Part shown: piece after piece, positions 3,112 to 60,303 of the stretch
Numbering within the stretch: the stretch's first letter is position 1
How the letters are laid out: every line of letters starts with the position of its first letter
DNA from: a virus
Taxonomy: Duplodnaviria; Heunggongvirae; Uroviricota; Caudoviricetes
Reading direction: 5' to 3' (one strand)
DNA length: 64,000 bases
IMG/VR virus record: IMGVR_UViG_3300046047_000272
Position numbers and translations under genes: made by a program
The notes under the pieces: model-generated
Database searches by the model: none
The model's input: only the letters and a program-made list of their open reading frames with translations
What the model was told of the DNA's origin: nothing

Positions 3112-4087
3112 ATGCAGGAATTCGAGGAATTGATATCTACTATTCGATACAGGAGATTGGCTCCTGTTCCCCGCCATCCTGACAGGATAAGATTCCACAT
3201 GGATGAACCATATGGTATTACTAAGGAACATCATATGATATTCAACGAAGCTAGTGAACGATATTTCAAACAACGTCCGAAAAACGATATACCCGATGGA
3301 TACAAGTACAATAGCGTCATTCAAGAGATCAAAACATTAAATGCTATGCCGACATTTCCACAACGATCAACCTCTTAATCTGGGCAAGAATGAACTTCCA
3401 ATAGGCTTCGACTCGCAACACTTGTTGCATACCGTTGACATTGCCCAATACCCGAACATGCTGATCTACGGAGGGACGGGAAGTGGTCGAACGCTGTATG
3501 ACAGTTGGATAGCCAGCAGTCTCGCCAGTAAGCCAGATGACTGGCTGGTCTGCGTCTATGATGCATTCGATGATGGTATTATGACGAATTGGTCATGGAT
3601 ACGGGATTTTCGCCCCAGAAACATCGATCTTACTGATAATATCTACAGGGATATTGACAGAATAGACCATGAATTAGCCTTACGGAAAATGATACCTGAG
3701 GACGATAGGGAACGATTACCACGAATACTACTCATCATCGACTTTAATGATCGTGTTGATGATTACCAACTCATTGAATATATTAGCCATCTCATGCATA
3801 CATATCAGGACGCAAAGTTATCCGTCATTATCACCACCCAGAGACCAGACGCTAAGCTCATACCAGAAGAATTCAGGAAGCTATTCCATAATAATGTCTA
3901 CCTTGGATTCGTTAACCCGACTATCAGAGGATTTGATCCATATTTTCCAGAGGCTATTCGCCGGCAACTTCCAAGAAAAATCGGATTGGTATCGCACACA
4001 TCATCTGTAGGATACGAGGCTGCGATGATACCTAGTCTTTCCAAGAAGGACTTGGAGCGAATACTCAATGGCCATTGTTGGCGATAA
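3112..4087 (+). pseudogene. FtsK/SpoIIIE-like P-loop ATPase, apparently split by a frameshift near 3355
   Basis: PNMLIYGGTGSGRT (Walker A variant), RILLIID (Walker B), IITTQRPDAKLIP. Upstream ORF 3112-3378 overlaps in another frame. Confidence 0.65.
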
Positions 4088-8412: not shown

Positions 8413-8652
8413 ATGACACGATTACCAACATTAGAAGAATTTGCCAAACTCGGATCAACAGTATCAAGCGATCCCGCTAAGAAGGAAGCCCTCCGACAGA
8501 AGATCTACGCGCTGAATGGAGGCAATACCCACGTCGATGTCGGCAAATTAGCCGTGAGAATACACTTACAGGCCAAATCTCAAGGCATAGCTAAAGCAAC
8601 GCCAATACCCGTCATTAAGAAATTCCTATCAGATATATTAGACGACGAATAA
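8413..8652 (+). CDS. small hypothetical protein
   Basis: 79-aa ORF with protein-like composition. Confidence 0.55.
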   Translation: MTRLPTLEEFAKLGSTVSSDPAKKEALRQKIYALNGGNTHVDVGKLAVRIHLQAKSQGIAKATPIPVIKKFLSDILDDE

Positions 8653-8820: not shown

Positions 8821-9050
8821 CAGCACCCCTTCCGGGGACAGCGCCCGATCAGGACTAATAGTTCTGCGTACACGCTGCGGCGACGCGACCACAGGCGCGC
8901 CGCCTTTGAATCTTGCTATGGCTGTTCTGTATCCTATTCACATGAGGTTAACGTACTCGCGTGGTTTCAGGTACTTGGGCGGTTCCTTCATGTTTCCTCC
9001 GTTTTCCTGTTTATATAACCATATTATACCTTAACATACTAATATAAGCC
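8821..9050 (-). mobile_element. probable IS607-family remnant (truncated TnpA N-terminal HTH)
   Basis: From ATG 8991 (GGAGG RBS, upstream TATAAT): MKEPPKYLKPREYVNLM*IGYRTAIARF, like the MerR-type HTH of IS607 serine recombinases. Stop at 8938-8940. Confidence 0.45.
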
Positions 9051-9167
9051 ATTGTTTACGAAGGTTTGTTATGACATGATGACCATCCTCGGTTAGATAC
9101 TCTATAGAAAGGAACAGTTCAGGCAACGATTCTGTTCTCAACGGTTAGGGATCACTTGGAGGTCATT

Positions 9168-9938
9168 ATGGAGTATATGGGCATTATGAAAACCACTGGG
9201 CAAATGACGCCATGTCACGCTAAAAATCCTGAGACATGCCGATATCATACCCAACATCAGCCATTTGACCAACATGATCTAGACTCCTTCAATGAGAGGA
9301 TCATTGCTGCACAACATCAAAACGATCACACGTCATTCAAGAAGAAGCACATGCAACCATCTATACGATTAGACGATCAGTCAACTAGGAAAGAGTATTT
9401 CACCATCATAGGATCTGATGACCGAACCATCAATGAATCATATGGCCGTGACTTAGCTCAACGCTTACTTCCCGGATCATACCGATCGTATATGTATGAT
9501 CCTTCATCACAAGAGGATGTGGCTGTCATCTTACACATGGATGATCATGGTCAGATTACCTCAGATATCTACAGCGGCCATGACAAAAGCGAAGTAGACG
9601 CCATACCGATACAGGACGCTAGCGTACAAGCACTCGCATTTACTGATCACATGCGCCAATTATCAGATCGAGTCACTGAGCTAGCCAGTCGACAAGATGA
9701 GAATGATCAGAGCGTCTACTCCTCAGTCAGCGCGGATCTCAGTGACCTTGTCAACAATCATCCATGCATTGATATTAGTGATACGGTTCCAATCGTCGAT
9801 AAGCTCGTAGATCTTAGGGATCAATACCATGATGCCGGTGATGACGCTGATTTTGACGGGGATCATGAAACAGGTGCACGATACCACGCCTCAGCTGATA
9901 TGATTGAGGATATACTACCAACATATCTAAGTCTATAG
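9168..9938 (+). CDS. hypothetical protein with N-terminal Cys/His leader
   Basis: YMGIMKTTGQMTPCHAKNPETCRYHTQH; GGAGG RBS. Confidence 0.75.
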   Translation: MEYMGIMKTTGQMTPCHAKNPETCRYHTQHQPFDQHDLDSFNERIIAAQHQNDHTSFKKKHMQPSIRLDDQSTRKEYFTIIGSDDRTINESYGRDLAQRLLPGSYRSYMYDPSSQEDVAVILHMDDHGQITSDIYSGHDKSEVDAIPIQDASVQALAFTDHMRQLSDRVTELASRQDENDQSVYSSVSADLSDLVNNHPCIDISDTVPIVDKLVDLRDQYHDAGDDADFDGDHETGARYHASADMIEDILPTYLSL

Positions 9939-9971
9939 ACATACGACACCGCTAGGATATATCTACATCTT

Positions 9972-10805
9972 ATGACATGGCATCTACAACAAAAGACCAT
10001 TAAGGACATTAAACCAGGTGACCTCACACTAGACGCTGACGGTAAGGTATCGCGCGTCTTATCAAAAACCGAGGAACATCGCCCAGATGATCTCTATGAA
10101 TTGACGTTCGTCACCAAGAATAAGACCATGACGATACTAGCTGATGGCCAACATGTCTGGCCTATAGATCCTAATCGAGGTGGTATTCCATATGAAGCTA
10201 AAGGTGAATCAGAAGCAACAACAGAGGATCTAGCCGTATGGTCCACTAGAGGGCTTCATCCATCATTGACCATCACGTCAACAGCGACAGGCGGACCATC
10301 ACGTCCATGGATGCTGAAAAGTTGTATCTTAACCGATGACTCTACCCAAGCATCGACACGAGTGGCCTGTCTAAGCGTCAATTCACCATCACACACCTTC
10401 ATGCTTGCATCACAGTCAGCGGTCAAGCAACCATCAACAACAACCACCGTACTCGTGACGGCTAATGATGGATCATCATATGAAATCTCACGTGATGACT
10501 ATGATCGCGCTATGAATGATGCCCTGCCCACGCATAATTGTGGAGGACCGCTGCCATTATCAACGATCATTCCATTAGCCGATGGGACCACCACAACCAT
10601 GGGTACCATTGCGACCGGAGACGTCGTCATCAGCCCAAGTGGACCATCTCCAGTACTATCGACGAGCCCAATCATGCCAGCCAAGAAACTCTACCATATA
10701 GATGTCGTAGACGATGACTCAGAAGAAGATTTGCCACAATGGACGATTGACGATCTTAGACAAGCAGAAGCCAGGTATCAGGCACAACATCAATTTGATT
10801 CGTGA
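9972..10805 (+). CDS. split-intein adaptor: IntC1 (class 3) - extein CGG - IntN2
   Basis: KTIKDIKPGD, ADGQHVW (block B), VACLSV (block F Cys), PTHN (block G) ending 10538; then CGG; then PLPLSTIIPLADGTTTTMGTIATGDVV (block A). Confidence 0.85.
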   Translation: MTWHLQQKTIKDIKPGDLTLDADGKVSRVLSKTEEHRPDDLYELTFVTKNKTMTILADGQHVWPIDPNRGGIPYEAKGESEATTEDLAVWSTRGLHPSLTITSTATGGPSRPWMLKSCILTDDSTQASTRVACLSVNSPSHTFMLASQSAVKQPSTTTTVLVTANDGSSYEISRDDYDRAMNDALPTHNCGGPLPLSTIIPLADGTTTTMGTIATGDVVISPSGPSPVLSTSPIMPAKKLYHIDVVDDDSEEDLPQWTIDDLRQAEARYQAQHQFDS

Positions 10806-13552
10806 CTCGCACGATGCACATCAAATCGCCATCGAATCTTTCCGCAATCATATATCCGCTCTAAACCATTCAACTCGGCTAACGCTTGCTCAGTAAGACC
10901 CTCAACAAAGATCAAATCAGGATCATCTCTGAAGCGTCGTTTCCGATATGTGAACTTATGCTGACGTTGCTTACCAATGATATAGGCGTAATCTGCAGGA
11001 AGAACAGCGTCTTGATAAAAGCCTAATCGACGATACATTGATCCATCACTAACGCTATTGTCGCTAAACGTGATCACATGATCAATATCACCTGCGACTA
11101 TAGCATGATGCAGGAGTCTACTTAACCCTCCACGTAATCGACAACCCAATAACGCTGCATATCTCACCAGTCTCATCTCACCATCATGGACACGATACGC
11201 GATGACGGCCGCAAGATCGTCATGATCCTCTTTCCGAGCAAGAGCCATGAACACACAACCAGTAGGCGCACCCTGAATATGATTCACGCGAAGGAATGAT
11301 CGTGCAGTATCGCGGTCGGGGATCACCACAACATATGATCGCGCATTCAGAGGTCGTAATAGATCAGGTCTCAGCAACGTCGTCAGATGATCCTCAACAA
11401 TAGTACGATGGTCAAGCCAATCATCCTCCCAGATCGTCATCAATCGAATACCATGATCAGCGGCTAATCGCGTCTTATCCTCATGACGAGATACGTCCTC
11501 AGGACGATGACAAGCATGCCAATGCAGCCCATTGTACTCAAAGCCAAGATGAAGATCCGGGACAAGCACATCAATCTCAGATCCACCAAGAACCGACCGA
11601 TCATTCCTCAGCACGAGATGATCGTCACCGAGCATCGATTGAATCGTATCCCCAAGATCACATTCACTCGAAGACGTATGACGACCAGACACGCACTTAG
11701 GACAATGGCCATCGTGCTCAAATGCTCGTCCCGTGACAGAACACGTCCAATGACGACCATGCTGGCATGTCCAAACTATCTGAGTCCTATCATTGATCAT
11801 CACCTGATCCGGTCTACGATCACCATTCGCCTGATCGTCCCACTCATCAGCAAGATCAGGTCGTTCCGTCGCAAGATCATTCACACCGCTCATGAGGGTC
11901 TTATGCTTGCAAAGATCGCATCCAGAGGCGTATCCTCCCCTCGCCTCGACGCTAGGAGGGCTCATCCAAGTCCAATCATGACCATGATCACATGTCCAAT
12001 AGACCGGCGTCTTCGACCAAACGCCAATCGCCGTGGGATCAACAGTGTTCTTATCAGACCATCTAACCATAAGATCAGGTCGTTCAGTCGCAAGGTCATT
12101 CCACCCGGGTAGGACTTGACGTCTCCGACAATACGGACAGGAGGCAAGACCAGTCCGTATCATAGCCTTCAGACTCCGATGATAATGACCGCCACATACA
12201 GGACATGACCAGACATATTGCCGACGATCACTAGGACAGGCAAGCACATCATCGGCCGAGCAGCCGTTCTCATCAGACCAGGCCGAAGCAAGGTTGGGTC
12301 TGGTCTTAGCCAGGCTATTCGAGTGATCATCAAGCCAAAGACGGCCATCCTCAAAAGGACACCGTCCATGCCACTTCTTCATCGTAGCCATTGAAGCTAA
12401 CCAATGATGATCGTGCCGGCATGACCAGTGACCAATATCAGGATTCTTCACTGATCCCCACAGCTCATCATCACAGATGGATGGCCAATCAGGATGCATA
12501 CCCGAACTATCATTCACGCCTGGAATGACCAGACGGCCATCACAGAAAGGACACTGACTCTTCCTAAGATGACACATGGCTCTAGCAGAAGCCGAGAAGA
12601 TCTCTCCACATGTATTGCATGACCAAAGCCAATACCGATCATCAGATGATCGTATCATCGTTGGATCTCCAGGATTGCCAGGCCACCAGGCCAGCATCGC
12701 ATCATGATGATCAGCAATCGTATCAATTCGACGATGAGCGCAGACCTGACAACAAGCATCGACACCACGATCCATAATCCGCCCAATGGTCGCATGCACA
12801 GGATGCCCCTCAGAGCACAACCAATCATAGGACGCTGATCGACGACAGGCCATTCGCTCTATGGGTTGATCTAATCGGGATCTATCAAGACGATCCATCA
12901 CCTCAGGATAGTCAGTCATATGGCCATATCGTACAAGATCTTGACATATCGGACATGCATCATGGTCATGCGTCAATGCTCTAGGCGACGATGTGAAGAC
13001 ATCACCATAGGGACATGTCCAGGTACATGACGTCAACGATGATCGTGAGATTGTCGTAGGGTCACGATTATCATGCCATAGACGCAGTAAATGATCATCG
13101 CTAGCCACATCGTTCACGCCCGGAATAATCACTAATCCTAGACAAACCGAACAACCGCCATTCCGCGTATTAGCTCTATTCTGAATAGATGATCTCCATA
13201 CATGATGACGATGATGCGGATCACGCCACCAGGCCCTCTTATTTGATGAAGCTAATAACGCATAAGGATCTAATCCCTCACGCTGATTCTCATCCCATGA
13301 CCACCAGGCCATAACGTCAGGTCGAGTAGACGCCAGGTCGTTATAGCCCTTAAGGACACGACCATGATCATATGGACAATACTGGTCATCATCATGCATC
13401 TTATCACATGACAATTGATAATGATGACCATCAGGACACGTCCACCACCATTTCTTATTACTCTTAGCGGCGACAGCAGAAGCAGGGCAATGATTCCTAT
13501 CCTCGTCCCATAGACGAGCAGCTGACGGCATATCATCTAATACGGTTCCCAT
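10790..13552 (-). CDS. free-standing homing-type endonuclease: multiple treble-clef Zn-ribbon repeats + Vsr/PD-(D/E)XK-like nuclease + Hef-like C-terminus
   Basis: Repeats of W.C..GH.W...CP.C...V.PG.NDLA..RPDL; EIDVLVPDLHLGFEYNGLHWH; IWEDDW; NHIQG...GGLSRLL...RIYDCGKIRW. Confidence 0.8.
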   Translation of the reverse strand: MGTVLDDMPSAARLWDEDRNHCPASAVAAKSNKKWWWTCPDGHHYQLSCDKMHDDDQYCPYDHGRVLKGYNDLASTRPDVMAWWSWDENQREGLDPYALLASSNKRAWWRDPHHRHHVWRSSIQNRANTRNGGCSVCLGLVIIPGVNDVASDDHLLRLWHDNRDPTTISRSSLTSCTWTCPYGDVFTSSPRALTHDHDACPICQDLVRYGHMTDYPEVMDRLDRSRLDQPIERMACRRSASYDWLCSEGHPVHATIGRIMDRGVDACCQVCAHRRIDTIADHHDAMLAWWPGNPGDPTMIRSSDDRYWLWSCNTCGEIFSASARAMCHLRKSQCPFCDGRLVIPGVNDSSGMHPDWPSICDDELWGSVKNPDIGHWSCRHDHHWLASMATMKKWHGRCPFEDGRLWLDDHSNSLAKTRPNLASAWSDENGCSADDVLACPSDRRQYVWSCPVCGGHYHRSLKAMIRTGLASCPYCRRRQVLPGWNDLATERPDLMVRWSDKNTVDPTAIGVWSKTPVYWTCDHGHDWTWMSPPSVEARGGYASGCDLCKHKTLMSGVNDLATERPDLADEWDDQANGDRRPDQVMINDRTQIVWTCQHGRHWTCSVTGRAFEHDGHCPKCVSGRHTSSSECDLGDTIQSMLGDDHLVLRNDRSVLGGSEIDVLVPDLHLGFEYNGLHWHACHRPEDVSRHEDKTRLAADHGIRLMTIWEDDWLDHRTIVEDHLTTLLRPDLLRPLNARSYVVVIPDRDTARSFLRVNHIQGAPTGCVFMALARKEDHDDLAAVIAYRVHDGEMRLVRYAALLGCRLRGGLSRLLHHAIVAGDIDHVITFSDNSVSDGSMYRRLGFYQDAVLPADYAYIIGKQRQHKFTYRKRRFRDDPDLIFVEGLTEQALAELNGLERIYDCGKIRWRFDVHRASHESN

Positions 13553-13663
13553 ACATACTATTATATCACGGAAAACACGACTATTCCACTATGGAATCAC
13601 CGTCAAATCATCATAAATTAGCTAGGGTCATCAGGTCTTATAGACGCAGAGCCATGATGCATC

Positions 13664-14641
13664 ATGATATCTACATATCTACATAATATGACCGAGACAA
13701 CAACCGTCACCTGTGACGAACGACACCTATGGACCGTATTAGACGTTCAGGATAAGACCATCATTGTCATATCCACGGAGGATATGATCAGAAATGGCGT
13801 CGATCGATATCGATTACCATCTCAACATGGACGATGGAGAAGAATCGTCACCGCCAAAGAGGACCAACCAGAGCCAGTACGATGCATCGAAGTGCAAGCA
13901 GATGAACACGTCTACCTCCTGAGTAATGGCGTCTACACCCACAATACTGGTGGCGGTAAGAGCGTGGCTCAACGAAACGTGATTTTCCATTGCATTGCTC
14001 ATGCCGCGGAAATCAAGTTTCTTGGTGTTGACTTGAAACGTGTAGAGTTATCGGCCTATAAGCCATATTCTAATGCCGTCATCGGTATAGCCACGACTCT
14101 TGAGGACGCTATCGAGGTCCTCAGATTTGCTCAGGAGACCATGATGAATCGTTATGGAGAGATGGAGGCCGCTCATCATAACAACTTCCTCGACATGGAG
14201 AACGCCGGATCGGCTCTGATGGTCATGGTTGACGAGGCCGGTGAGCTGCTAGACATGTCCTCACCAGCTAAGGCTCTTGTTGGATCAACGCCTGTGCCCA
14301 ATCTTGAGAACAGACCTGATTTAGCGCACTTACAACTTGGAGACCATATCATCGGTGATGACGGTGAATGGCATCGCGTCATTGACAAATACCAGCCAAC
14401 AACAGATAAGGCCTATAAGGTGACCATCAAGCGTGACCACGATGGTCAGAAAGAAGATTTTACCTGTGGCGCCCAACACGCGTGGACCGTCTATCCTCAT
14501 GGCGCCAATGACGAACCATTAGTTGTCAATACTGACCAGCTCATGAGTATCTGGGAATCAACACCGCCAAGCGAACGCAAGAACATCAAATTCACTAGAT
14601 CACGTACGGGCAATGCTCTGAAAGAAGCGTCTATTGATTAA
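13664..14641 (+). CDS. IntC2 - FtsK-like ATPase core extein - IntN3 (split intein fragment)
   Basis: TCDERHLW, VRCIEV, YTHN (ends 13945); extein TGGGKS...VDLKRVEL...MVDEAGELL...PAK (13946-14272); then ALVGSTPVP...LQLGDHIIG...TCGAQHAW. Confidence 0.88.
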   Translation: MISTYLHNMTETTTVTCDERHLWTVLDVQDKTIIVISTEDMIRNGVDRYRLPSQHGRWRRIVTAKEDQPEPVRCIEVQADEHVYLLSNGVYTHNTGGGKSVAQRNVIFHCIAHAAEIKFLGVDLKRVELSAYKPYSNAVIGIATTLEDAIEVLRFAQETMMNRYGEMEAAHHNNFLDMENAGSALMVMVDEAGELLDMSSPAKALVGSTPVPNLENRPDLAHLQLGDHIIGDDGEWHRVIDKYQPTTDKAYKVTIKRDHDGQKEDFTCGAQHAWTVYPHGANDEPLVVNTDQLMSIWESTPPSERKNIKFTRSRTGNALKEASID

Positions 14642-14653
14642 CCACACGGTACG

Positions 14654-15055
14654 ATGCATCATATGAACATAACTACCCTATCATCACGTCAAGAAGCATC
14701 ATCGTCCCTATTAGGATGTAATATCATGATGGAATTTGACGGCGCCCAGAACGATGAGCGAGTCATCATTGTTCCAGTAGAAGGTCTGAATCTCTTCACG
14801 ATGCAACAGATCAAACGATGTCCACAGCACTGGATATCCATTATGACATCGCCAAACATCACCCTGCTCAGACCCATCATGCTCAGCAACATCCTCATAC
14901 CAAATCGAGAGGACCCATCTGAGGCCATCATCAAATCCGTTTCCAGGAAGCCTCTCCGGCGATGCCTGTTATCAGCATCAATGGATACAGGAACCATCAC
15001 CATCAATCTTACGAATCCGAATCAAGACGACCTATCCGTCATTCTTGGTGTCTGA
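14654..15055 (+). CDS. hypothetical protein
   Basis: 133-aa ORF directly downstream of the intein gene. Confidence 0.5.
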   Translation: MHHMNITTLSSRQEASSSLLGCNIMMEFDGAQNDERVIIVPVEGLNLFTMQQIKRCPQHWISIMTSPNITLLRPIMLSNILIPNREDPSEAIIKSVSRKPLRRCLLSASMDTGTITINLTNPNQDDLSVILGV

Positions 15056-15124
15056 TGATGTGACGGTGACATAAGATGACGATCATGTGTACATATGTAT
15101 ACATCATCGTCATCCAGGCCATGA

Positions 15125-16378
15125 TCAGTCATGAATAAGACCCATATCTGACAGTACATGTTCACGATCACGAAGGTCCGACACATCATCCTCAAGCAAT
15201 TCAGAAGGATAATCTGTAGTAATCGCCGATCCCTTCTTGACCACATGAATGAGATCGGTAAGACTCTCGAACCAATTAGCGTAGGCTACGATATAATCAT
15301 CCCGCCATTCATGAACATCCATCAGCATAGCATCAACAACACCACCAGCGACGACGAAGGCCGCTCGCTCAGCGGTGATCGTCGTGAGATCATCAGACGT
15401 CCTTGGTGTACCACCAGATGTGAGTGCATCATGGATAAACGCTGGTATCTGACGAATGATCTCACGGCGAACAAGATTTGCTTCATGATTCGTGCAAGAT
15501 CGATTAATAGCCGTCTTCACTATCTCTGGCTCGTATCTCCACATGATCACATCAGCCAGAGCATGACGCGTATCCAAGACCTCTAAGGTCATCATAACAT
15601 CGTCTAACTGGTTGATATGGAGACGATCCTGCCTACGCTGTTCATCAATAGCCACACAACGAGTCAGAACAGACATGGATGAATCATGCAGGATATCGGG
15701 AAGCGTGTATCCATCGACATACGGCTTATTTAGCACACTGACCTCTGATGGCTTCATGACCTGGTCGCGCAACATCACACCAAGAAGAGACGACTGCATC
15801 AATGATGGATCAATGGTCATATGATTACCATGCTCATTCACCAGATCAACATCAACCACATAGACATCAATGCTGCCAGTGCTCATGTCCTCAGATGGCC
15901 GATACACACCTAACTCAGTAGTGGAAAGATGATACCGACAATGCTGATCACGTTCCTGTTGAATCAATACATCATAGATCGTATCCTCTGCGGTCCTGAG
16001 GATACGATCACGTCCATACTCACGTCTGAACTCGACATCCCGCACGATGAGCATACCAGCCATCCTCTTTGAACCTGGCTGATAGATCATAGGAATCATA
16101 TATCGTCCAGTATACAAATCGTGCACAAGAACAGCGATCTTATCACCACGATCAATAATAGTGTCTACACGATGCACGGTAAGACCATTCCAATAACTAT
16201 CCGTCGTCCTACGCACCACGGTATCCTCATCAGCCACGTCTGGTACATCGACAACCCTGTCATGAACCGTTACCTGGGAACGAAGATAATTACGATACGC
16301 CACTATAGACTCCTCCTGTAAACACCTATTTGCTGCATGAATAGTATTTATCGTATCACATGATGCGTCATAACGCAT
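15125..16378 (-). CDS. hypothetical protein (start may be internal)
   Basis: 417-aa ORF. Confidence 0.65.
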   Translation of the reverse strand: MRYDASCDTINTIHAANRCLQEESIVAYRNYLRSQVTVHDRVVDVPDVADEDTVVRRTTDSYWNGLTVHRVDTIIDRGDKIAVLVHDLYTGRYMIPMIYQPGSKRMAGMLIVRDVEFRREYGRDRILRTAEDTIYDVLIQQERDQHCRYHLSTTELGVYRPSEDMSTGSIDVYVVDVDLVNEHGNHMTIDPSLMQSSLLGVMLRDQVMKPSEVSVLNKPYVDGYTLPDILHDSSMSVLTRCVAIDEQRRQDRLHINQLDDVMMTLEVLDTRHALADVIMWRYEPEIVKTAINRSCTNHEANLVRREIIRQIPAFIHDALTSGGTPRTSDDLTTITAERAAFVVAGGVVDAMLMDVHEWRDDYIVAYANWFESLTDLIHVVKKGSAITTDYPSELLEDDVSDLRDREHVLSDMGLIHD

Positions 16379-18217: not shown

Positions 18218-20365
18218 CTACTTAATGAACTCGTCCTCACCCATGATCAGATGAGAACGCCCCTCATTAGAAACCATAGCCAGTAACGCTTCAAACCTAG
18301 GTTTATTAGCACTCACACGATGAGCAGAAGCAACCGTCGTCCTACCCTCCAAGGCGAGTAACAATCCCCTGGCCTCAAGATCTAATCCACGGGATTGCAA
18401 ATCGGTCTCAATACCAGTGACATCATCACGGATAATCTGCCCCATAATTCTCTTATTGACTTGAATGACCTCACGAACGGCAAGACGGCCACTGCCAGCA
18501 GATCGTAGGACTAATCTCTGAGAAAGAATGCCCTTCAAATTTCTAGCAAGATCACTCCTCAGCTTATCCTTCACATAGGATGCATCAGCTAAGTCCATCA
18601 CACGTTTAACCACATCTGGCGCTGACGTCGCATGGATCGTCGCAAAAGTCAAATGGCCTGAGCTACAGGCGTCCATAGCAGCTTTCAACGTTCGAGAATT
18701 ATCAATCTCACCAATCAGAATAATATCAGGATCCTGCCTAAGAGAATCCTCAATACCCTGATCAAATGATGGAACATCCTCACCAACCTCTCGTTGCATG
18801 ACATCAGATGGCGCATCGTCAGGATATATCGTCTCAATAGGATCCTCAATAGTAATGATCTTATCAGCACGATGCTTCTGAGCATATCGAATAATCGTAG
18901 AATTCGTTGCCGACTTACCAGATCCAGTAGGACCAGCAGTCAGAATCAAACCCTGCGACAACATCGCCCAAGCCAACACATCATGCTGAAGATCAATCTC
19001 CTCAGGCGTATAGATCTCAGGACGAATATGCCTGAACACAATCGTCGTGCCACCATGTGATTCAGCAAAAATCACCCTGAAACGCTCACCACGATGCCGA
19101 CCATCATGAATCTCATACGCAAGATTTGACGATCGAAACCTATTCAGCCTCTCCATCTTCTCACCATTAATCAACGGATTACCAGGACTCACCATATACT
19201 CATTCAACGCATACTCATCAATGGGCGTATACTTATCCAACCGATACAACGAACCATCAATCCTCAACTTCACATGACGACCAGCCGTGATATGCACATC
19301 AGACGCCCCATGATCAATAGCATCAGAGAGAATATGATCAATATCAAACGGTTCAACACCAATGTCCTCAGGACCAATCAACACATGATCAGGTGTAGCC
19401 TTCAACACGTATCCACCATGACCAGCATCAGGAGTAGGCAACACCGGAGCAGACGCCAGATCACCCCAAAACGACGACGCCTCAATCTCTAACCGTCTAA
19501 CCACATCGCTCAGATCACCTCTAACGCCACGAGCAGCATGCTGATTCATCTCATCCTCCTGAGCATCAACAATAGCATTAGCGTCCACCCTAGATAAGGC
19601 ACTAGCAGCACCCCGAGCCACGTCAACAGGAACGCCTCCAAGTCCACCATCCTCATCAATCGTCGAGGCATCAAGGCCAACCACCCGACCATCAGCATCG
19701 TCACCAGGATGGCTCACTTCCTGAACAACATCATCACCACGCTCATCAACAGCATCATGAGTAGGCTCAGACAACACCTCTGAATCATCATGCATCGACG
19801 CCACGTCATGCTGACCGACGCTATCATCAGCGTCCGCGATGACGTCCAAACCTAATCCATCATCAGCATCATCAACACTAGTGTCTATCTGCTCATCATG
19901 ACTCTGATCCTTAGTAGCATGATCCTCAGTAGACTGATCAACGCTCAATGCATCAACCAGAGGTGGCTCATCAATTACAGTCCGCTGATCATCAATAGTA
20001 TCGTGAGGAGCATCATCACTCACCGGTGGCACCAGTCTCATATCATCATGAGAATCATGGTCGTCAGCCGGTAAGACCTCCTGAACGAGAACCACGTCCT
20101 CATCAGGATCACCTGCATCATCATCCATCATCAATGGCGACATCTGAACATGATCAGCATCATCGTCAAGCAACGACTCAGACTCGGATGGTATCGTGAA
20201 ATCAACACTCTCCTCATCCAAGAGACTCTGATGAGCAGCCCTCACTGCCTCATCGTTCTCAGCCACACGACGATCAGCTAGGAACCGCATCATAGCAGCC
20301 TCTTCCTCACCATCGTCAATGGCCATGCTCTCATCATCTCGAATATGATCAACCATCACACTCAT
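18218..20365 (-). CDS. PilT/PilU-like secretion ATPase with long acidic N-terminal extension
   Basis: GASDVHI, GPTGSGKS, TIEDPIE, QREVG.D, LRQDPDIILIGEI, GHLTFATIH. Confidence 0.9.
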   Translation of the reverse strand: MSVMVDHIRDDESMAIDDGEEEAAMMRFLADRRVAENDEAVRAAHQSLLDEESVDFTIPSESESLLDDDADHVQMSPLMMDDDAGDPDEDVVLVQEVLPADDHDSHDDMRLVPPVSDDAPHDTIDDQRTVIDEPPLVDALSVDQSTEDHATKDQSHDEQIDTSVDDADDGLGLDVIADADDSVGQHDVASMHDDSEVLSEPTHDAVDERGDDVVQEVSHPGDDADGRVVGLDASTIDEDGGLGGVPVDVARGAASALSRVDANAIVDAQEDEMNQHAARGVRGDLSDVVRRLEIEASSFWGDLASAPVLPTPDAGHGGYVLKATPDHVLIGPEDIGVEPFDIDHILSDAIDHGASDVHITAGRHVKLRIDGSLYRLDKYTPIDEYALNEYMVSPGNPLINGEKMERLNRFRSSNLAYEIHDGRHRGERFRVIFAESHGGTTIVFRHIRPEIYTPEEIDLQHDVLAWAMLSQGLILTAGPTGSGKSATNSTIIRYAQKHRADKIITIEDPIETIYPDDAPSDVMQREVGEDVPSFDQGIEDSLRQDPDIILIGEIDNSRTLKAAMDACSSGHLTFATIHATSAPDVVKRVMDLADASYVKDKLRSDLARNLKGILSQRLVLRSAGSGRLAVREVIQVNKRIMGQIIRDDVTGIETDLQSRGLDLEARGLLLALEGRTTVASAHRVSANKPRFEALLAMVSNEGRSHLIMGEDEFIK

Positions 20366-20398: not shown

Positions 20399-22609
20399 TC
20401 ACGACAACAACACTGACGCAGGATCAATCACCGGCTCTACTCGATGATGCCGACCAACCCATCGTGCAGGCACGATGTCAGCTCCAGTGACGAACGAATT
20501 CCTCCGCTCAGCCGTCGCAAACGGCACAACCGAGTAATCCTCACCATGAACCAATCCCAACGCGTCACCCGCACGAGTAATCGCATCACCAATCATATGA
20601 TTAGGAACCAACCAAATCACCCGATCATACAACGTCTTACCAAGATCACAAGCATATGAGGCCAATATCCTCTTATACTCAACCGTCTTCTTCTCACTCA
20701 ACTCTAACTCCACGGCCAATGACCTACTCGAACCATCACCCATCCGCCTCTTCCTCGCGACCACCATATCAGGAAGATGATCCAACAACGCGAACTCGTC
20801 CCCAAGATCACGCCGCAACCTCGGCCTATTCGACGCCACATCCAACCGCTGCTCAATCGGCGTCAACCCACCATCAGACCACACATCGTTCCCCCAAATC
20901 ACCCACAACCACATGTCCGCGCCACGAGCATCAGGTCTCAACGCCGCCCAATCAGGAGCGTCCTCCACACCCTCATCACCACGCTTCACCGCACGAGCCC
21001 AATCAGCATACCATGAATCCACATGCTCACCACCAGGACCAACACCACCCAACAATCCCCTACGATACGCAACCGGCAACAATCCACGATGACCCTGCCG
21101 AATCTTACTATACGCTGAACGATACTCCCTCTCAGACACCAACTCAGCGTCACCATCAGCCAACTCACCACGAACACGAGACCACTCATCACCCCCAAGA
21201 CCCAACACATCAGGAGCATCATCCCGACCAGACAACAACCATGAAGCCACACTCGACAAGCCAAGCGTATGCGACTGCGACAACGGATTCAACCTATCCA
21301 TCGACACACCACCAAGCCACGGATGCCTCGAATGCACACAACCAGCATCAGTCACCATCCACAACCTCGGACCAGCAAACAACTGCGCACACCGCGCAAA
21401 CCCCAAATCAACCCACGAATCAAACCGACGATCAACACGAGAAGCCGTCTTATCACGCCAACCACCAACACGAGCCAATTGAGCAGACGTCGAATACGAC
21501 CACCTCGACAAGAAATCCAACGCACCAACATCACGCCTAGTAAACCGCACCGGCCGACGCAACTTCCACTCCAACACCTGCAAATCACGAGCCAACTCAG
21601 GATCAATATCAGCAACCTGAGCAAACTCATGCAACCGACCAGCCACACCACCATACACCTCAGACACCCGACGCGCCGCACCACGGCCACCACCAAGCGC
21701 AATACCCTCCTGCAAAGCCACCCCATCCACAGGCCGACCCGCATCACGACCACCCTCAACAGGCGCATCAACCTCAGAAGCCATCACACCATGATATCTA
21801 CCAGCCGGACCACGAAAACCACGATCACCAGACCCAGACGCTCCATCCTCATCCAATGCAGTAGAGACACTCACCATATCATCAGGTTCATCGTCACCAC
21901 CATCATCACGGTCCTCAACCACACCATCGTCTATATCATCAAGATCCCACGCATCGTCATCATCACCATCACCCTCAACCCACTCACCATCATCTCCATC
22001 ACGATCATCATCCTCACGAGTATGATGACTCATGATATGATTATCGTCATTAGTGTCAGCATCATGGACATGATCATCACCCCCAACAACTACATCACGA
22101 CCAACACGTATAGCGTCCTGACCATCGTCTCTACCGACCACATCATCATTACTAACATCATCATGATGACCAGCCATATGATTATCACCATTAGATAGAG
22201 AACCATCACCATGATCATCCTTACCAAGAGTCATGTCCTCAGTAGTAGGATCATCAGGAATCACAAACACTAATCCATCATCAGCGTTCTCATGTTGATC
22301 AGAGGACTCACGACTATCACCATGTCCACTCAACGGATGATCATCATGACTAGATGCCGTATCCGTATGACGATCTACTATAAGAGATGCATGATGATCA
22401 CCCTGACTAGAACGATCTACATGAATAGGATAATCAACCTGACTATGATCATTGTCTGCATGTTCCGTATCGTCTTCATGACTCACATCATGAGTATCTA
22501 CACTAGGTGGAGTAGATGACGTATCCTCGTCGTCTTCAGGTATGACGAAGACCAATCCAATGTCCTCATTGTCCACAGGATCCATATCAAAAGGATTCAC
22601 TTTCATCAT
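20399..22609 (-). CDS. replication-relaxation family-like protein (wHTH + PD-(D/E)XK) with acidic N-terminus
   Basis: RDVGALDFLSRWSYSTSAQLA wHTH; HTLGL; HLPDMVV...LAVELELSEK...YKRILASY. Confidence 0.65.
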   Translation of the reverse strand: MMKVNPFDMDPVDNEDIGLVFVIPEDDEDTSSTPPSVDTHDVSHEDDTEHADNDHSQVDYPIHVDRSSQGDHHASLIVDRHTDTASSHDDHPLSGHGDSRESSDQHENADDGLVFVIPDDPTTEDMTLGKDDHGDGSLSNGDNHMAGHHDDVSNDDVVGRDDGQDAIRVGRDVVVGGDDHVHDADTNDDNHIMSHHTREDDDRDGDDGEWVEGDGDDDDAWDLDDIDDGVVEDRDDGGDDEPDDMVSVSTALDEDGASGSGDRGFRGPAGRYHGVMASEVDAPVEGGRDAGRPVDGVALQEGIALGGGRGAARRVSEVYGGVAGRLHEFAQVADIDPELARDLQVLEWKLRRPVRFTRRDVGALDFLSRWSYSTSAQLARVGGWRDKTASRVDRRFDSWVDLGFARCAQLFAGPRLWMVTDAGCVHSRHPWLGGVSMDRLNPLSQSHTLGLSSVASWLLSGRDDAPDVLGLGGDEWSRVRGELADGDAELVSEREYRSAYSKIRQGHRGLLPVAYRRGLLGGVGPGGEHVDSWYADWARAVKRGDEGVEDAPDWAALRPDARGADMWLWVIWGNDVWSDGGLTPIEQRLDVASNRPRLRRDLGDEFALLDHLPDMVVARKRRMGDGSSRSLAVELELSEKKTVEYKRILASYACDLGKTLYDRVIWLVPNHMIGDAITRAGDALGLVHGEDYSVVPFATAERRNSFVTGADIVPARWVGRHHRVEPVIDPASVLLS

Positions 22610-48837: not shown

Positions 48838-50298
48838 CTACAAGCCGGCCGCCGTGTGACGTGCCAGCCATGCACCGCACGAAGCGCGGTGACGGTTCTC
48901 CAGCACGTCATAGAGTGTTTTACGATGGGGCGCGCCCCGGCCCCTGGGTAGAGCATCGGAGGAACGTCCTCCGATGACGCGAGCGGCATTCACATCAGCG
49001 TTAAGCGCGCGTCCGCAACACGAGCACTTGAAGTGCGACTGATCCCTTCGATTCCTCTTATCAACATAACCGCACTTCGAGCACTGCTGGGACGTGTAGG
49101 CCGCATTCACCTTGGTGATGATGATTCCACGCTCCTCGCGCAGCGCCTGAAGCTTCTGGTTCAGGAACCCGCGACCCGACCTTGACAGGATACGGTTCAT
49201 CCTCTTGCTAAGACCGCCACCACGGAAGTCAAGATCCTCAACAATGATCTCCCTCGCGTCGGCTGCCAGAATGTTCAGCATGCGCCCAATCTCGTTCTCC
49301 ATGAGACTACGAGACCGGGACACTAACGAATCATAGCAGGAATCTCCCCTGAGCCTTAAACCCTTACTACTGAGCTCCTTGACACGATTCATGAGCATAG
49401 TGTCTAATCGTTTCAACTCAGCAAGGGCTGGCCTCCCGAGCATCCTCCCGTCAGGGAGCGTGAACAGGCTCACGAGACCCCAGTCGAATGCGATCACGTC
49501 ACCATCCTCGCGGAGCGGAGCGCATGGCTTCTCTATTACGGGTGACACGCTGAGCGTGTCACCCTTTAACGAGAGTTGGATATGATTCAGAAGTCTTCCA
49601 CCCCGTCGTCTCCTAGCGAAGAACCTGTTATCCTTTACTGGTATGAGTACGGGGTGACCCCTGTCAAGCGTGCTCGTCCGAAGCCACCATGAGAAGCCAG
49701 TCCCCCTGGATTCCTCGAGGACAGCGCTCTTCGCGTCTAGTTTCATCGTGATCTCATGCCCGAGGACTGGTCGGTGATTCACTCTGCGAGCGTGCTTCAC
49801 AATGCGACGCATGAGCCAGAGATGCTCACTACTCACGTGGATGAGCGTTGTCCTACCGGCTCTTCGTTCAGCTGTGGTAGGGTGGATAAGCGTGCCGTCA
49901 CTAGTGACCATCCAGTCGAGCTCGTAGGTCTTCGCGTGCCATGCCATATGATAATTCAGCCTGTAGAGGGTGTCCCTCGTGTACGGGTCGAGGGTGCTGA
50001 GCGTAATGATCCGCCGCACGGTACCCTGTAGGGAGCGGAGCCAGGAGGCGTAGGATTCCCTGGCCTGCGCGTAACAGGACTGGGTCTGCCGAGCGGAGAG
50101 GTGGATTATGGCCTTCGAGTTAGTGTACTTGCTGGGTGGCTTGGCGTCCTGGATGAGACGCTGATCCATGCTGGCTACTAGGATGGTGAGGCCGTGCTGG
50201 TACTCGTGGATTAGGTCTCGTATCCTGTTGATCTTACCCGCGTTAGCGGGTGATTTGAGCCTGTAGGAGCGAGTGTAGACTGATGGCTTACTGGTCAT
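48838..50298 (-). CDS. tnpB: TnpB RNA-guided endonuclease (IS200/IS605/IS607 group), no adjacent TnpA
   Basis: RuvC motifs IAFDWG, IVEDL, NADVNAA; Zn finger YTSQQCSKC...CSCC; higher GC than flanks. Confidence 0.9.
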   Translation of the reverse strand: MTSKPSVYTRSYRLKSPANAGKINRIRDLIHEYQHGLTILVASMDQRLIQDAKPPSKYTNSKAIIHLSARQTQSCYAQARESYASWLRSLQGTVRRIITLSTLDPYTRDTLYRLNYHMAWHAKTYELDWMVTSDGTLIHPTTAERRAGRTTLIHVSSEHLWLMRRIVKHARRVNHRPVLGHEITMKLDAKSAVLEESRGTGFSWWLRTSTLDRGHPVLIPVKDNRFFARRRRGGRLLNHIQLSLKGDTLSVSPVIEKPCAPLREDGDVIAFDWGLVSLFTLPDGRMLGRPALAELKRLDTMLMNRVKELSSKGLRLRGDSCYDSLVSRSRSLMENEIGRMLNILAADAREIIVEDLDFRGGGLSKRMNRILSRSGRGFLNQKLQALREERGIIITKVNAAYTSQQCSKCGYVDKRNRRDQSHFKCSCCGRALNADVNAARVIGGRSSDALPRGRGAPHRKTLYDVLENRHRASCGAWLARHTAAGL

Positions 50299-59580: not shown

Positions 59581-60303
59581 ATGCAGACCACGCATCAACA
59601 CACGATTCATTGGAAGACCGTTAACCGTCATCACGCAACTATAGGATTAGATAGACATCATGATAGCGCGTTCCTGGATGTCAGGAATTCGCACGCCATC
59701 ATCACAGGTGATCATATTCCAGACATCCTGGACACAATGCATCATCTCGTCAGCCAAATGTCTTCCTTAGGGAATATCATGACCGACGACATCATCAGCC
59801 TCTCAGATGTGATCGCCCAAGCAAAGAAGAGGATCATGGACGTCTACGAGTGGGCTACCGAGCACAGGAATCCAGCAACCAATGCTGTGTATACGGTCTT
59901 GCCATCATCAATTCGCATGAACTTCGTTATCATCAATATCTGCAATCATGTACAACCACTCAGTGAAGAGGACATGACTGATCTCTCGACTATTGCACGA
60001 TTAGGTAGATACGCGCGTGTCTTCCTCGTCATTGTGGCTCATACATCACAATTATCGAGTCTGGATAATGAGATCATCATGAATACGGCGAATCGAATCA
60101 TCGTAGGTCCGACGAACCTGCCTAGCGTATACGCTTTACTGCAAGGCACATCAAGCATGGACACACCACGGCAAGCAGGCATCCTCAGCGTGTATCGGAA
60201 GGAGAAGGGCTTCATCATACCAAGAGATGATCTCCCATGGTATGATCGGTCATGGAAGAGTAAAGGCCTGTTAGCAGAACCAGCCTCTCGACAAGATGAC
60301 TAG
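59581..60303 (+). CDS. degenerate FtsK-like protein lacking Walker A
   Basis: IGLD...HAIITG; LSTIARLGRYARVFLVIVAH; N..NRIIVG. Confidence 0.5.
   Translation: MQTTHQHTIHWKTVNRHHATIGLDRHHDSAFLDVRNSHAIITGDHIPDILDTMHHLVSQMSSLGNIMTDDIISLSDVIAQAKKRIMDVYEWATEHRNPATNAVYTVLPSSIRMNFVIINICNHVQPLSEEDMTDLSTIARLGRYARVFLVIVAHTSQLSSLDNEIIMNTANRIIVGPTNLPSVYALLQGTSSMDTPRQAGILSVYRKEKGFIIPRDDLPWYDRSWKSKGLLAEPASRQDD

Follow-up and report, generated by a model that had tools for sequence, protein, structure and literature searches.

Gene organisation of the locus

Within a 64,000-nucleotide stretch of DNA from IMG/VR record IMGVR_UViG_3300046047_000272, classified as Caudoviricetes and referred to as a whole as the window, positions 9,972 to 14,641 hold two forward-strand genes in which parts of an FtsK/SpoIIIE-type ATPase are set between fragments of class-3 inteins, with a reverse-strand gene separating them. 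The first gene, numbered piece 2 by its place in the proposed protein (open reading frame (ORF) 9972-10805, + strand, 277 amino acids (aa)), runs from the C-terminal fragment (IntC) of intein 1 through the tripeptide Cys-Gly-Gly to the N-terminal fragment (IntN) of intein 2, and on rereading it has the layout given in the original prediction for this DNA: an intein body ending in PTHN, then CGG, then a new intein start. IntC1 (9972..10538, +, 189 aa, with H61, W63, C133, T187 and N189) is, by profile and structure model, a whole class-3 intein domain minus only its first ~10 residues. The tripeptide (10539..10547, +, residues 190-192 of piece 2) supplies the +1 nucleophile of intein 1 with its Cys and opens the Walker A motif of the ATPase. 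IntN2 (10548..10805, +, 85 aa) starts with Pro and consists of a ~55-aa core that stops at the strand before block B, corresponding to positions 2-56 of a 161-position profile built from 9 natural contiguous inteins, plus a 30-aa acidic tail; its homologue in the metagenomic relative L034 is only 59 residues long.

Piece 3 (ORF 13664-14641, + strand) likewise has the described order of IntC2, ATPase core and IntN3, while its start is most likely at 13688 rather than 13664, as indicated by the database call P0002 and a start motif discussed below. IntC2 (13688..13945, +, 86 aa, ending in YTHN, with H13, W15, C66, T84 and N86) begins just ahead of block B (profile positions 61-161). The middle extein (13946..14272, +, 109 aa, TGGGKS to SPAK) spans the remaining Walker A (TGGGKS) to Walker B (VMVDE), matches PF01580 in Pfam (E 1e-7) and is 84% identical to its counterpart in a complete relative, G001. 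IntN3 (14273..14641, +, 122 aa) starts with Ala, contains blocks A and B with H-x-W (profile positions 1-114) and terminates at the usual split site. The ORF also has an NCBIfam match above cut-off, TIGR01443, and the class-3 C-terminal motif occurs twice in the six frames of the window, against a mean of 0.02 (maximum 1) in 100 shuffles.

The original prediction had overlooked the gene between the two halves of intein 2, a putative free-standing homing endonuclease of 920 aa (10790..13552, - strand). Its product has seven treble-clef zinc-finger matches (PF14311, E 6.5e-44), a C-terminal nuclease region and a match to phrog_3339 (homing endonuclease, E 1e-62), and G001 has an orthologue (37% identity) at the corresponding position. 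Two contigs of run X1 span 9017-14206 and 14179-15500 with zero differences from the window; X1 is possibly the window's own source, so this agreement checks the assembly only. Separately, read-through of a TAG from the ORF at 9156, which lies in the frame of piece 2, was rejected, since this ORF does not encode FtsK sequence and, in G001, its orthologue and piece 2 are ~6 kb apart.

Partner genes in a complete relative

Two partner genes had been predicted to lie elsewhere on the replicon, one for the N-terminal part with a short block A at its end and one for the C-terminal part with block F/G ahead of an ARLGR...TQRP region, and both were located in G001 (419,707 bp, with terminal repeats), the sole relative from a scan of viral contigs. 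All four pieces are present there, and the window arrangement of pieces 2 and 3 is repeated. Piece 1 (G001 208552-209979, + strand) ends in PMSLI, a short Pro-start block A and an acidic tail; a reading of the whole of G001 places it ~103 kb from piece 2 on the opposite strand, adjoining a VirB4-like gene, primase and RecA, and close to a gene that we take to be signal peptidase-like. Piece 4 (G001 91616-92668, - strand) opens with 46 aa of block F/G, after which comes the ARLGR...TQRP region, and lies ~8 kb beyond piece 3, behind two endonuclease-like ORFs on the other strand.

Queries with G001 piece 1 and piece 4 retrieved P0124 (62% identical) and P0142 (70%), respectively, and for these two proteins, as for the two window proteins, the database lists 2 contigs, of which the longest measures 491,046 bp. 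This shared contig footprint, which is indirect but specific, makes it likely that the window's replicon has all four pieces. Complementary intein halves thus sit in separate genes, on consecutive exteins of one replicon, as seen directly in G001 and indirectly for the window contig, and the exteins sum to 427 + 3 + 109 + 291 = 830 residues.

Host ATPase and extein junctions

Walker A, Walker B, ARLGR...TQRP and an N-terminal membrane region, the features of the FtsK/SpoIIIE type, are all present, the hydrophobic stretches of piece 1 having been seen by eye. The ATPase matches phrog_1358 (E 4e-22); matches to the NCBIfam FtsK, EccCa and TraB models were all far below cut-off, and no match to piece 3 was found among annotated phages or plasmids. 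Gene callers label these products "hypothetical" because Pfam and NCBIfam both fail to recognise pieces 1 and 2. We infer a role in DNA translocation from the family and from the position of piece 1 beside the VirB4-like gene, primase and RecA. The window also encodes two short FtsK-like paralogues (3341-4087 and 59581-60303).

Junctions in intein-free and partly invaded relatives show that the insertion points agree to the residue (a slash marks the splice junction). The intein-free relative L095 reads HLLVCGTTGGGKS at Walker A, L056 and L063, with intein 1 only, read HN/CGSTGGGKS, and P0006, without intein 2, reads HN/CGGTGSGKS; P0062, which lacks intein 3, has AAAK-TDEAK, compared with SPAK, intein 3 and SDDAK in the window set. 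Three Walker A residues accordingly come from piece 2, and the earlier proposal that CGG and TGGGKS join into a Walker A is supported by relatives lacking intein 2, which read CGGTGSGKS or CGSTGGGKS.

Class-3 residues and intein fold

The Trp/Cys/Thr triad that defines class-3 inteins (PMC7891396) was found in all three inteins, as had been proposed, including intein 3 through P0142 and family counts. Residue 1 is Pro in 17/17 sequences of intein 1 and 5/5 of intein 2, and Ala in 76 of 80 sequences of intein 3 (Ser in 2, Pro in 1, unread in 1). The block-B Trp (N3:12) is conserved as W63 in 6/6, W15 in 56/59 and W266 in 27/27 sequences of inteins 1, 2 and 3, and the block-F Cys (C2:4) as C133 in 6/6, C66 in 59/59 and within the IntC3 motif in 110/112; for the window's intein 3 this Cys sits in P0142, an indirectly assigned partner. 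The G5 Thr (block G, C1:5), present in about 95% of class-3 inteins generally (PMC7891396), is found in 111/112 sequences of intein 3 and 43/59 of intein 2. The splice junctions read THN/C (intein 1) and THN/T (intein 2) in the window, and THN/S (intein 3) in P0142. Splicing of the three inteins would proceed through a block-F branched thioester.

These counts come from families of unequal size. The C-terminus of every one of the 17 matches to piece 1 carries PM[SAG]L[VI]/PL..T and an acidic tail, with net charges from -5 to -14; for piece 2, 6-7 homologues were found. Piece 3 has 155 matches in all, and 60 of the 120 listed start with IntC2 (59 scored); piece 4 has 418, of which 112 of the 120 listed are free-standing IntC3 genes.

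The closest solved sequences are class-3 DnaB inteins. In an AlphaFold model of piece 2, built from 7 sequences (predicted local distance difference test (pLDDT) 73), IntC1 residues 4-190 superpose on residues 11-146 of 6RIY (MchDnaB-1) with Z 14.7 and a root mean square deviation (rmsd) of 1.7 A over 120 aligned residues; as modelled, the IntC1 fold is that of a class-3 DnaB intein minus its first ten residues. The HINT fold is thus assigned by model for intein 1, partially or weakly for intein 2, where the model of the contiguous form in L033 is confident on either side of a disordered insert, and by sequence profile only for intein 3.

Three cut sites and fragment pairing

A further point absent from the original prediction is that each of the three inteins is cut at a place of its own. 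Their fragments tile the profile as 2-10 + 15-161 (intein 1), 2-56 + 61-161 (intein 2) and 1-114 + 121-161 (intein 3), placing the cuts after ~residue 11, after ~residue 56 and at the usual site, respectively; the 9-residue profile match of IntN1 is weak on its own (E 0.21). Since every fragment pair is complete on the profile, none of the three is a three-piece intein. Of the six non-cognate combinations, three (N1+C2, N1+C3 and N2+C3) would form a fold with a stretch missing, and three (N2+C1, N3+C1 and N3+C2) would overlap. Owing to the gaps in the first three, differing cut positions likely limit mispairing.

Complex prediction for IntN2 with IntC2 scored 0.50, compared with 0.00 for the best control, with runs sharing at least 92% of contacts and a partner pLDDT of at least 70. 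The mark used is passed by 116/157 solved and 2/215 mismatched pairs, in a benchmark whose solved inteins the model may recall; among those passing at 0.60 or below are only 18 of the 157 solved pairs and both of the mismatches. The prediction lends weak support to the pairing of IntN2 with IntC2.

Intermediate forms

Relatives from metagenomes (the best 80 of 182) and database matches hold these inteins in contiguous, insert-bearing, split and dispersed states, a series that makes the origin of split inteins directly testable. The window's own contig was not among these relatives, nor among the matches from the viral scan. In L056, intein 1 is contiguous with a long low-complexity insert, and inteins 2 and 3 are absent. 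L034 has a contiguous intein 1 and an intein 2 split around two reverse-strand endonuclease genes, its whole ATPase gene still lying beside the VirB4-like gene, primase and RecA. Inteins 1 and 3 are split in both L033 and P0006; intein 2 is contiguous in the former, with ~150 mostly acidic residues inserted at the cut point, and absent from the latter. All three are split in L032, where piece 3 precedes piece 2 and the two are not separated by an endonuclease gene; such a gene separates the intein 2 halves in the window, G001 and L034. Among the 120 matches listed, intein 3 is split in 79, contiguous in 5 (P0082, P0088, P0095, P0100 and P0110), absent from 34 and truncated in 2, with P0063 reassigned by eye from truncated to absent.

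An extein tree (81 rows, 97 columns, quick search) separates a site-A/B clade from a site-C clade with 85-89% support; with 40 of its 78 inner branches open it is too weak to order gains and losses, and so for endonuclease invasion followed by dispersal we infer the course from the model of PMC2677866. Homing-endonuclease genes would have inserted into surface loops of contiguous inteins, producing the splits, and new start signals would then have arisen, leaving the pieces able to move apart.

Start signals

The motif ATATCT lies 7 nt ahead of the piece 2 ATG (9959..9964, +) and 7 nt ahead of the ATG at 13688 (13675..13680, +), the likely true start of piece 3. In G001, 20 of 25 ATATCT sites at the 7-nt spacing open ORFs of at least 80 aa, compared with 0-1 at each of 8 other spacings (3 to 11), and such sites precede 3/3 IntC-starting genes (pieces 2, 3 and 4). 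Among other relatives, L032 has the motif before piece 3 and, with one mismatch, before piece 2, and L033, L034 and L035 are without it; the endonuclease gene has TATAAT 7 nt before its ATG. Judged from the layout of actinobacterial promoters, ATATCT is likely the -10 box of a leaderless promoter. A sigma-70 scan returned 8 sites, no excess over the 10.9 expected. The same ATATCT-N7-ATG arrangement occurs at window position 8413 and before the G001 VirD4-like gene, and a G001 sigma-70 region-2 protein (L024:7404-8231) may read the motif.

Proposed assembly and alternative explanations

Taken together, sequence and structure models make it very likely that one membrane-anchored FtsK-type ATPase is produced from four genes by three trans-splicing reactions at three split class-3 inteins, giving a predicted chain of 830 residues, and the system is real, conserved and probably functional. 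Piece 1, the 427-aa membrane part with a ~11-residue IntN and its acidic tail, would dock into the near-whole IntC1 of piece 2; the IntN2 of piece 2 (~56 residues) would pair with IntC2 of piece 3, and IntN3 of piece 3 with the 44-aa IntC3 of piece 4. Following the class-3 route (PMC7891396), the block-F Cys would attack the upstream junction and the extein would be passed to the +1 Cys, Thr or Ser, after which Asn cyclisation would release the intein. Piece 2 would donate Cys-Gly-Gly only, completing Walker A.

Several observations weigh against this assembly. The G5 Thr of IntC2 is kept in only 43 of 59 sequences (Ser in 11, Ala in 4, Val in 1), and the model of the contiguous intein 2 of L033 is poor (pLDDT 56, predicted template modelling score (pTM) 0.35) and superposes in part only (58 residues, rmsd 2.3 A, Z 6.2 on 6BS8). 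The net charges of all six fragments, taken as whole-fragment values, are negative or zero (about -4 to -11), so the charge complementarity known from other split inteins is not evident. Overlapping non-cognate fragments of engineered Npu can bind (PMC3427171), which means that orthogonality is not guaranteed and that N2+C1, N3+C1 and N3+C2 could cross-bind. Two inteins just three residues apart may hinder each other, and the window's own pieces 1 and 4 (P0124 and P0142) are assigned by the shared 2-contig, 491,046-bp footprint only.

The variation of G5 Thr in intein 2 would fit a different outcome, in which the pieces bind through their intein parts and splice partly or not at all, the ATPase assembling non-covalently; a fragmented ribonucleotide reductase has reportedly been found to assemble without ligation. 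Such an ATPase would have to function with an unspliced Walker A loop carrying two inteins three residues apart, which would hardly be tolerable, and the block-F Cys, the terminal His-Asn and the +1 nucleophile are retained family-wide, so that we regard this outcome as improbable.

The four pieces could also be a decaying relic broken by mobile endonucleases, its work being done by the VirD4-like protein of G001 or by FtsK-like paralogues such as those at 3341 and 59581 in the window. Conservation largely refutes this and leaves it very improbable: frames are open and cut sites identical across many divergent elements, every IntC gene has its own start motif, and between the window and G001 the exteins are 62-84% and the intein cores 45-83% identical, compared with 34% for two dispensable tails.

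Equally hard to sustain is the idea that the main action of piece 2 is in cis. The residues absent from IntC1 are exactly those with which IntN2 begins, and the order IntC-extein-IntN is that of cyclising constructs, so the first strand of IntN2 might fill the IntC1 slot across CGG and cause self-inhibition or a cleavage that gates assembly. The piece 2 model gives no sign of docking, with a pLDDT below 50 for residues 191-197 and its best structural matches beginning at target residue 11-12, and P0006 has an IntC1 without an adjacent IntN2.

Joining at the RNA level, by intron splicing, read-through or frameshift followed by ordinary cis-splicing, would suit the co-linear pieces 2 and 3 of the window and G001, yet is scarcely credible: in G001, piece 1 lies ~103 kb distant and on the opposite strand; in L032, pieces 2 and 3 come in reverse order; and an Rfam search of 9000-15500 found no intron, only two chance snoRNA matches (E 0.6-0.8).

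A sister clade and other inteins nearby

Among the 120 listed piece-3 matches, 58 have a different intein end, mostly of ~40 residues, at GGGK/S. In G002-G004 (3/3 records searched), the N-terminal gene has no more than 14-16 intein residues after its GGGK, a free-standing gene of ~210-260 aa, also seen in L043 (L043:3030-3746), gives the intein middle with block B and a long insert, and the ~40-aa IntC lies about 100 kb away; the respective loci are L196:1483-2916, L200:15762-16397 and L160:~10001 for G002, L197:1468-2487, L201:11329-12009 and L161:~10001 for G003, and L198:1450-2499, L202:6552-7346 and L162:~10001 for G004. By sequence, this clade apparently holds a natural three-piece class-3 intein at GGGK/S, a form not proved in nature according to a 2023 preprint (10.1101/2023.01.30.526203).

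The G002 ATPase gene (L196:1483-2916) carries a further, contiguous Cys-start intein at PM/C, three residues before the intein-1 site, and is followed by endonuclease-like genes; this brings the insertion sites in the Walker A region to at least four. A class-3-like intein start, LALDTPLPTP, occurs in a nuclease-like gene near an ATPase piece in L069 (13174-15480), L071, L074-L076 and L092; the ORF has 768 aa in most and 355 aa in L092.

The carrier element

A Pfam scan of G001, covering 172 of its 233 proteins of at least 200 aa (11 straddling stretch borders and 50 under 260 aa were left out), identified VirB4-like and VirD4-like ATPases, Tad/type II secretion parts, a ParA-like protein and a plasmid replicase domain, together with DnaE, DnaB, DnaG, gyrase, RecA and type I-E Cas genes. 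No terminase, portal or capsid was found among the scanned proteins, divergent virion genes being possible, and the terminase family PF03237 matched 0/5 records (control: 5/14 genomes). PF13814 matched 1/5 records, below cut-off, and gave no match in G001; queries with PilT and VirD4 returned no close relative among plasmids (best below 37% identity), and GTDB gave 2 family-level matches on short contigs of metagenome-assembled genomes among 48 loci. On this gene content, the carrier is likelier to be a giant conjugative plasmid, perhaps of the Inocle kind, than a phage.

In G001, the VirB4-like ATPase is apparently encoded in two distant genes (206357-207811 and 223038-224264) and topoisomerase I in two adjacent ORFs (343248-345776), and no intein motif was found at the ends of either set of ORFs. 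Its type I-E CRISPR-Cas genes (Cas1, Cas7, Cse1, Cas3) lie at L022:8487-17108, and any spacers might indicate competitors of the element. Unrelated-looking window proteins (4499, 5194, 7139, 9156, 31148 and 54089) share an N-terminal motif, C-x-A-K-x-P...C-x-x-H, which is also frequent in G001 and L032/L033. The window further encodes a PilT-type ATPase with an acidic N part (18218-20365), a product at 20399-22609 that is conserved in G001 (56%), has no PHROG match and presumably resembles replication-relaxation proteins, whose family PF13814 did not match G001, and, at 48838-50298, what we take to be a TnpB-like transposon protein. Relatives of the middle extein (window 14079-14279; runs X1 and X4) occur on contigs of depth ~1,400-1,800, compared with 26 for the window's element, so kin elements can be very abundant.

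Comparison with known systems

The locus resembles the fractured genes of PMC2677866 in that a split intein interrupts the gene of a host enzyme and the intein halves flank a free-standing endonuclease gene. Those fractured genes comprise two parts and one split intein per locus, with all three genes on one strand and a helicase, IMPDH, DnaE, RNR, ligase or terminase as host; here there are four parts and three inteins in an FtsK-type host, the endonuclease lies on the opposite strand, and the pieces are as much as ~103 kb from one another. AceL NrdHF, the first naturally split class-3 intein, likewise has a non-nucleophile residue 1 and an internal block-F Cys and is spread over two genes (PMC7891396); its fragment lengths are canonical according to a 2025 review (PMC11766414), whereas here one protein has three split class-3 inteins, two of them cut at unusual sites. 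PMC7891396 found 0 split forms among 1701 class-3 inteins, and in the open-access literature, outside which subscription papers largely lie, AceL NrdHF was the sole natural split class-3 intein found. Split class-3 inteins, reported to be very rare, with one metagenomic example, here account for well over 100 sequence clusters, spread across several sites of a single protein.

The very short IntN and long IntC of intein 1 recall atypically split inteins (PolB16 OarG, PMC10189870; AceL-TerL and Cat, PMC11766414). PolB16 OarG has a 15-aa IntN, called the shortest characterised, and uses Ser1 (PMC10189870), unlike intein 1, whose IntN has a core of ~10-12 residues, a Pro start and an acidic tail (19-90 aa in all); such a ~11-residue core could come from peptide synthesis. 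The ~56/86 cut of intein 2 matches neither natural IntN type, ~100-120 or 15-25 aa, of PMC12707363 (2025), and no natural split near residue 56 was found in the open-access literature, although engineered cuts in the N half of gp41-1 and Npu splice and may include one near that residue (10.1101/2023.01.30.526203). The range of natural cut places in the intein fold is thereby widened.

Inocle elements (PMC12340149) share with G001 a size of ~400 kb, VirB4, VirD4, DnaE, gyrase and signal peptidase, while the Inocle marker (InoC) domain PF13814 was not detected in G001; FtsK and inteins are not mentioned in the accessible text of that paper and its supplements. Our search of the open-access literature found no split intein in FtsK, no natural protein built by several split inteins and no natural four-gene, three-intein assembly.

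Like the assembly proposed here, engineered tandem trans-splicing with orthogonal split inteins builds one chain from at least three segments (PMC12707363). The locus differs from those laboratory constructs in that its genes form a natural set, its inteins are all class 3 and its middle segment has three residues. We think it likely, on a reading broader and somewhat less secure than the assembly itself, that this is natural tandem trans-splicing, with four genes, three class-3 inteins made orthogonal by their cut sites, a split at ~56, a ~11-residue IntN and a gene that donates only a tripeptide, that the ATPase would act as an AND gate over four promoters, and that giant elements, with a sister clade taking the splitting a step beyond in its three-piece intein, would be a large untapped source of split inteins. 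Inteins that evolved to work side by side would be useful to protein engineers for multi-segment ligation. The parts are known, namely fractured genes, one split class-3 intein and engineered tandem splicing; new with respect to the open-access literature are the four-gene tandem trans-splicing proposed here, the natural cut near residue 56 and the tripeptide extein gene.

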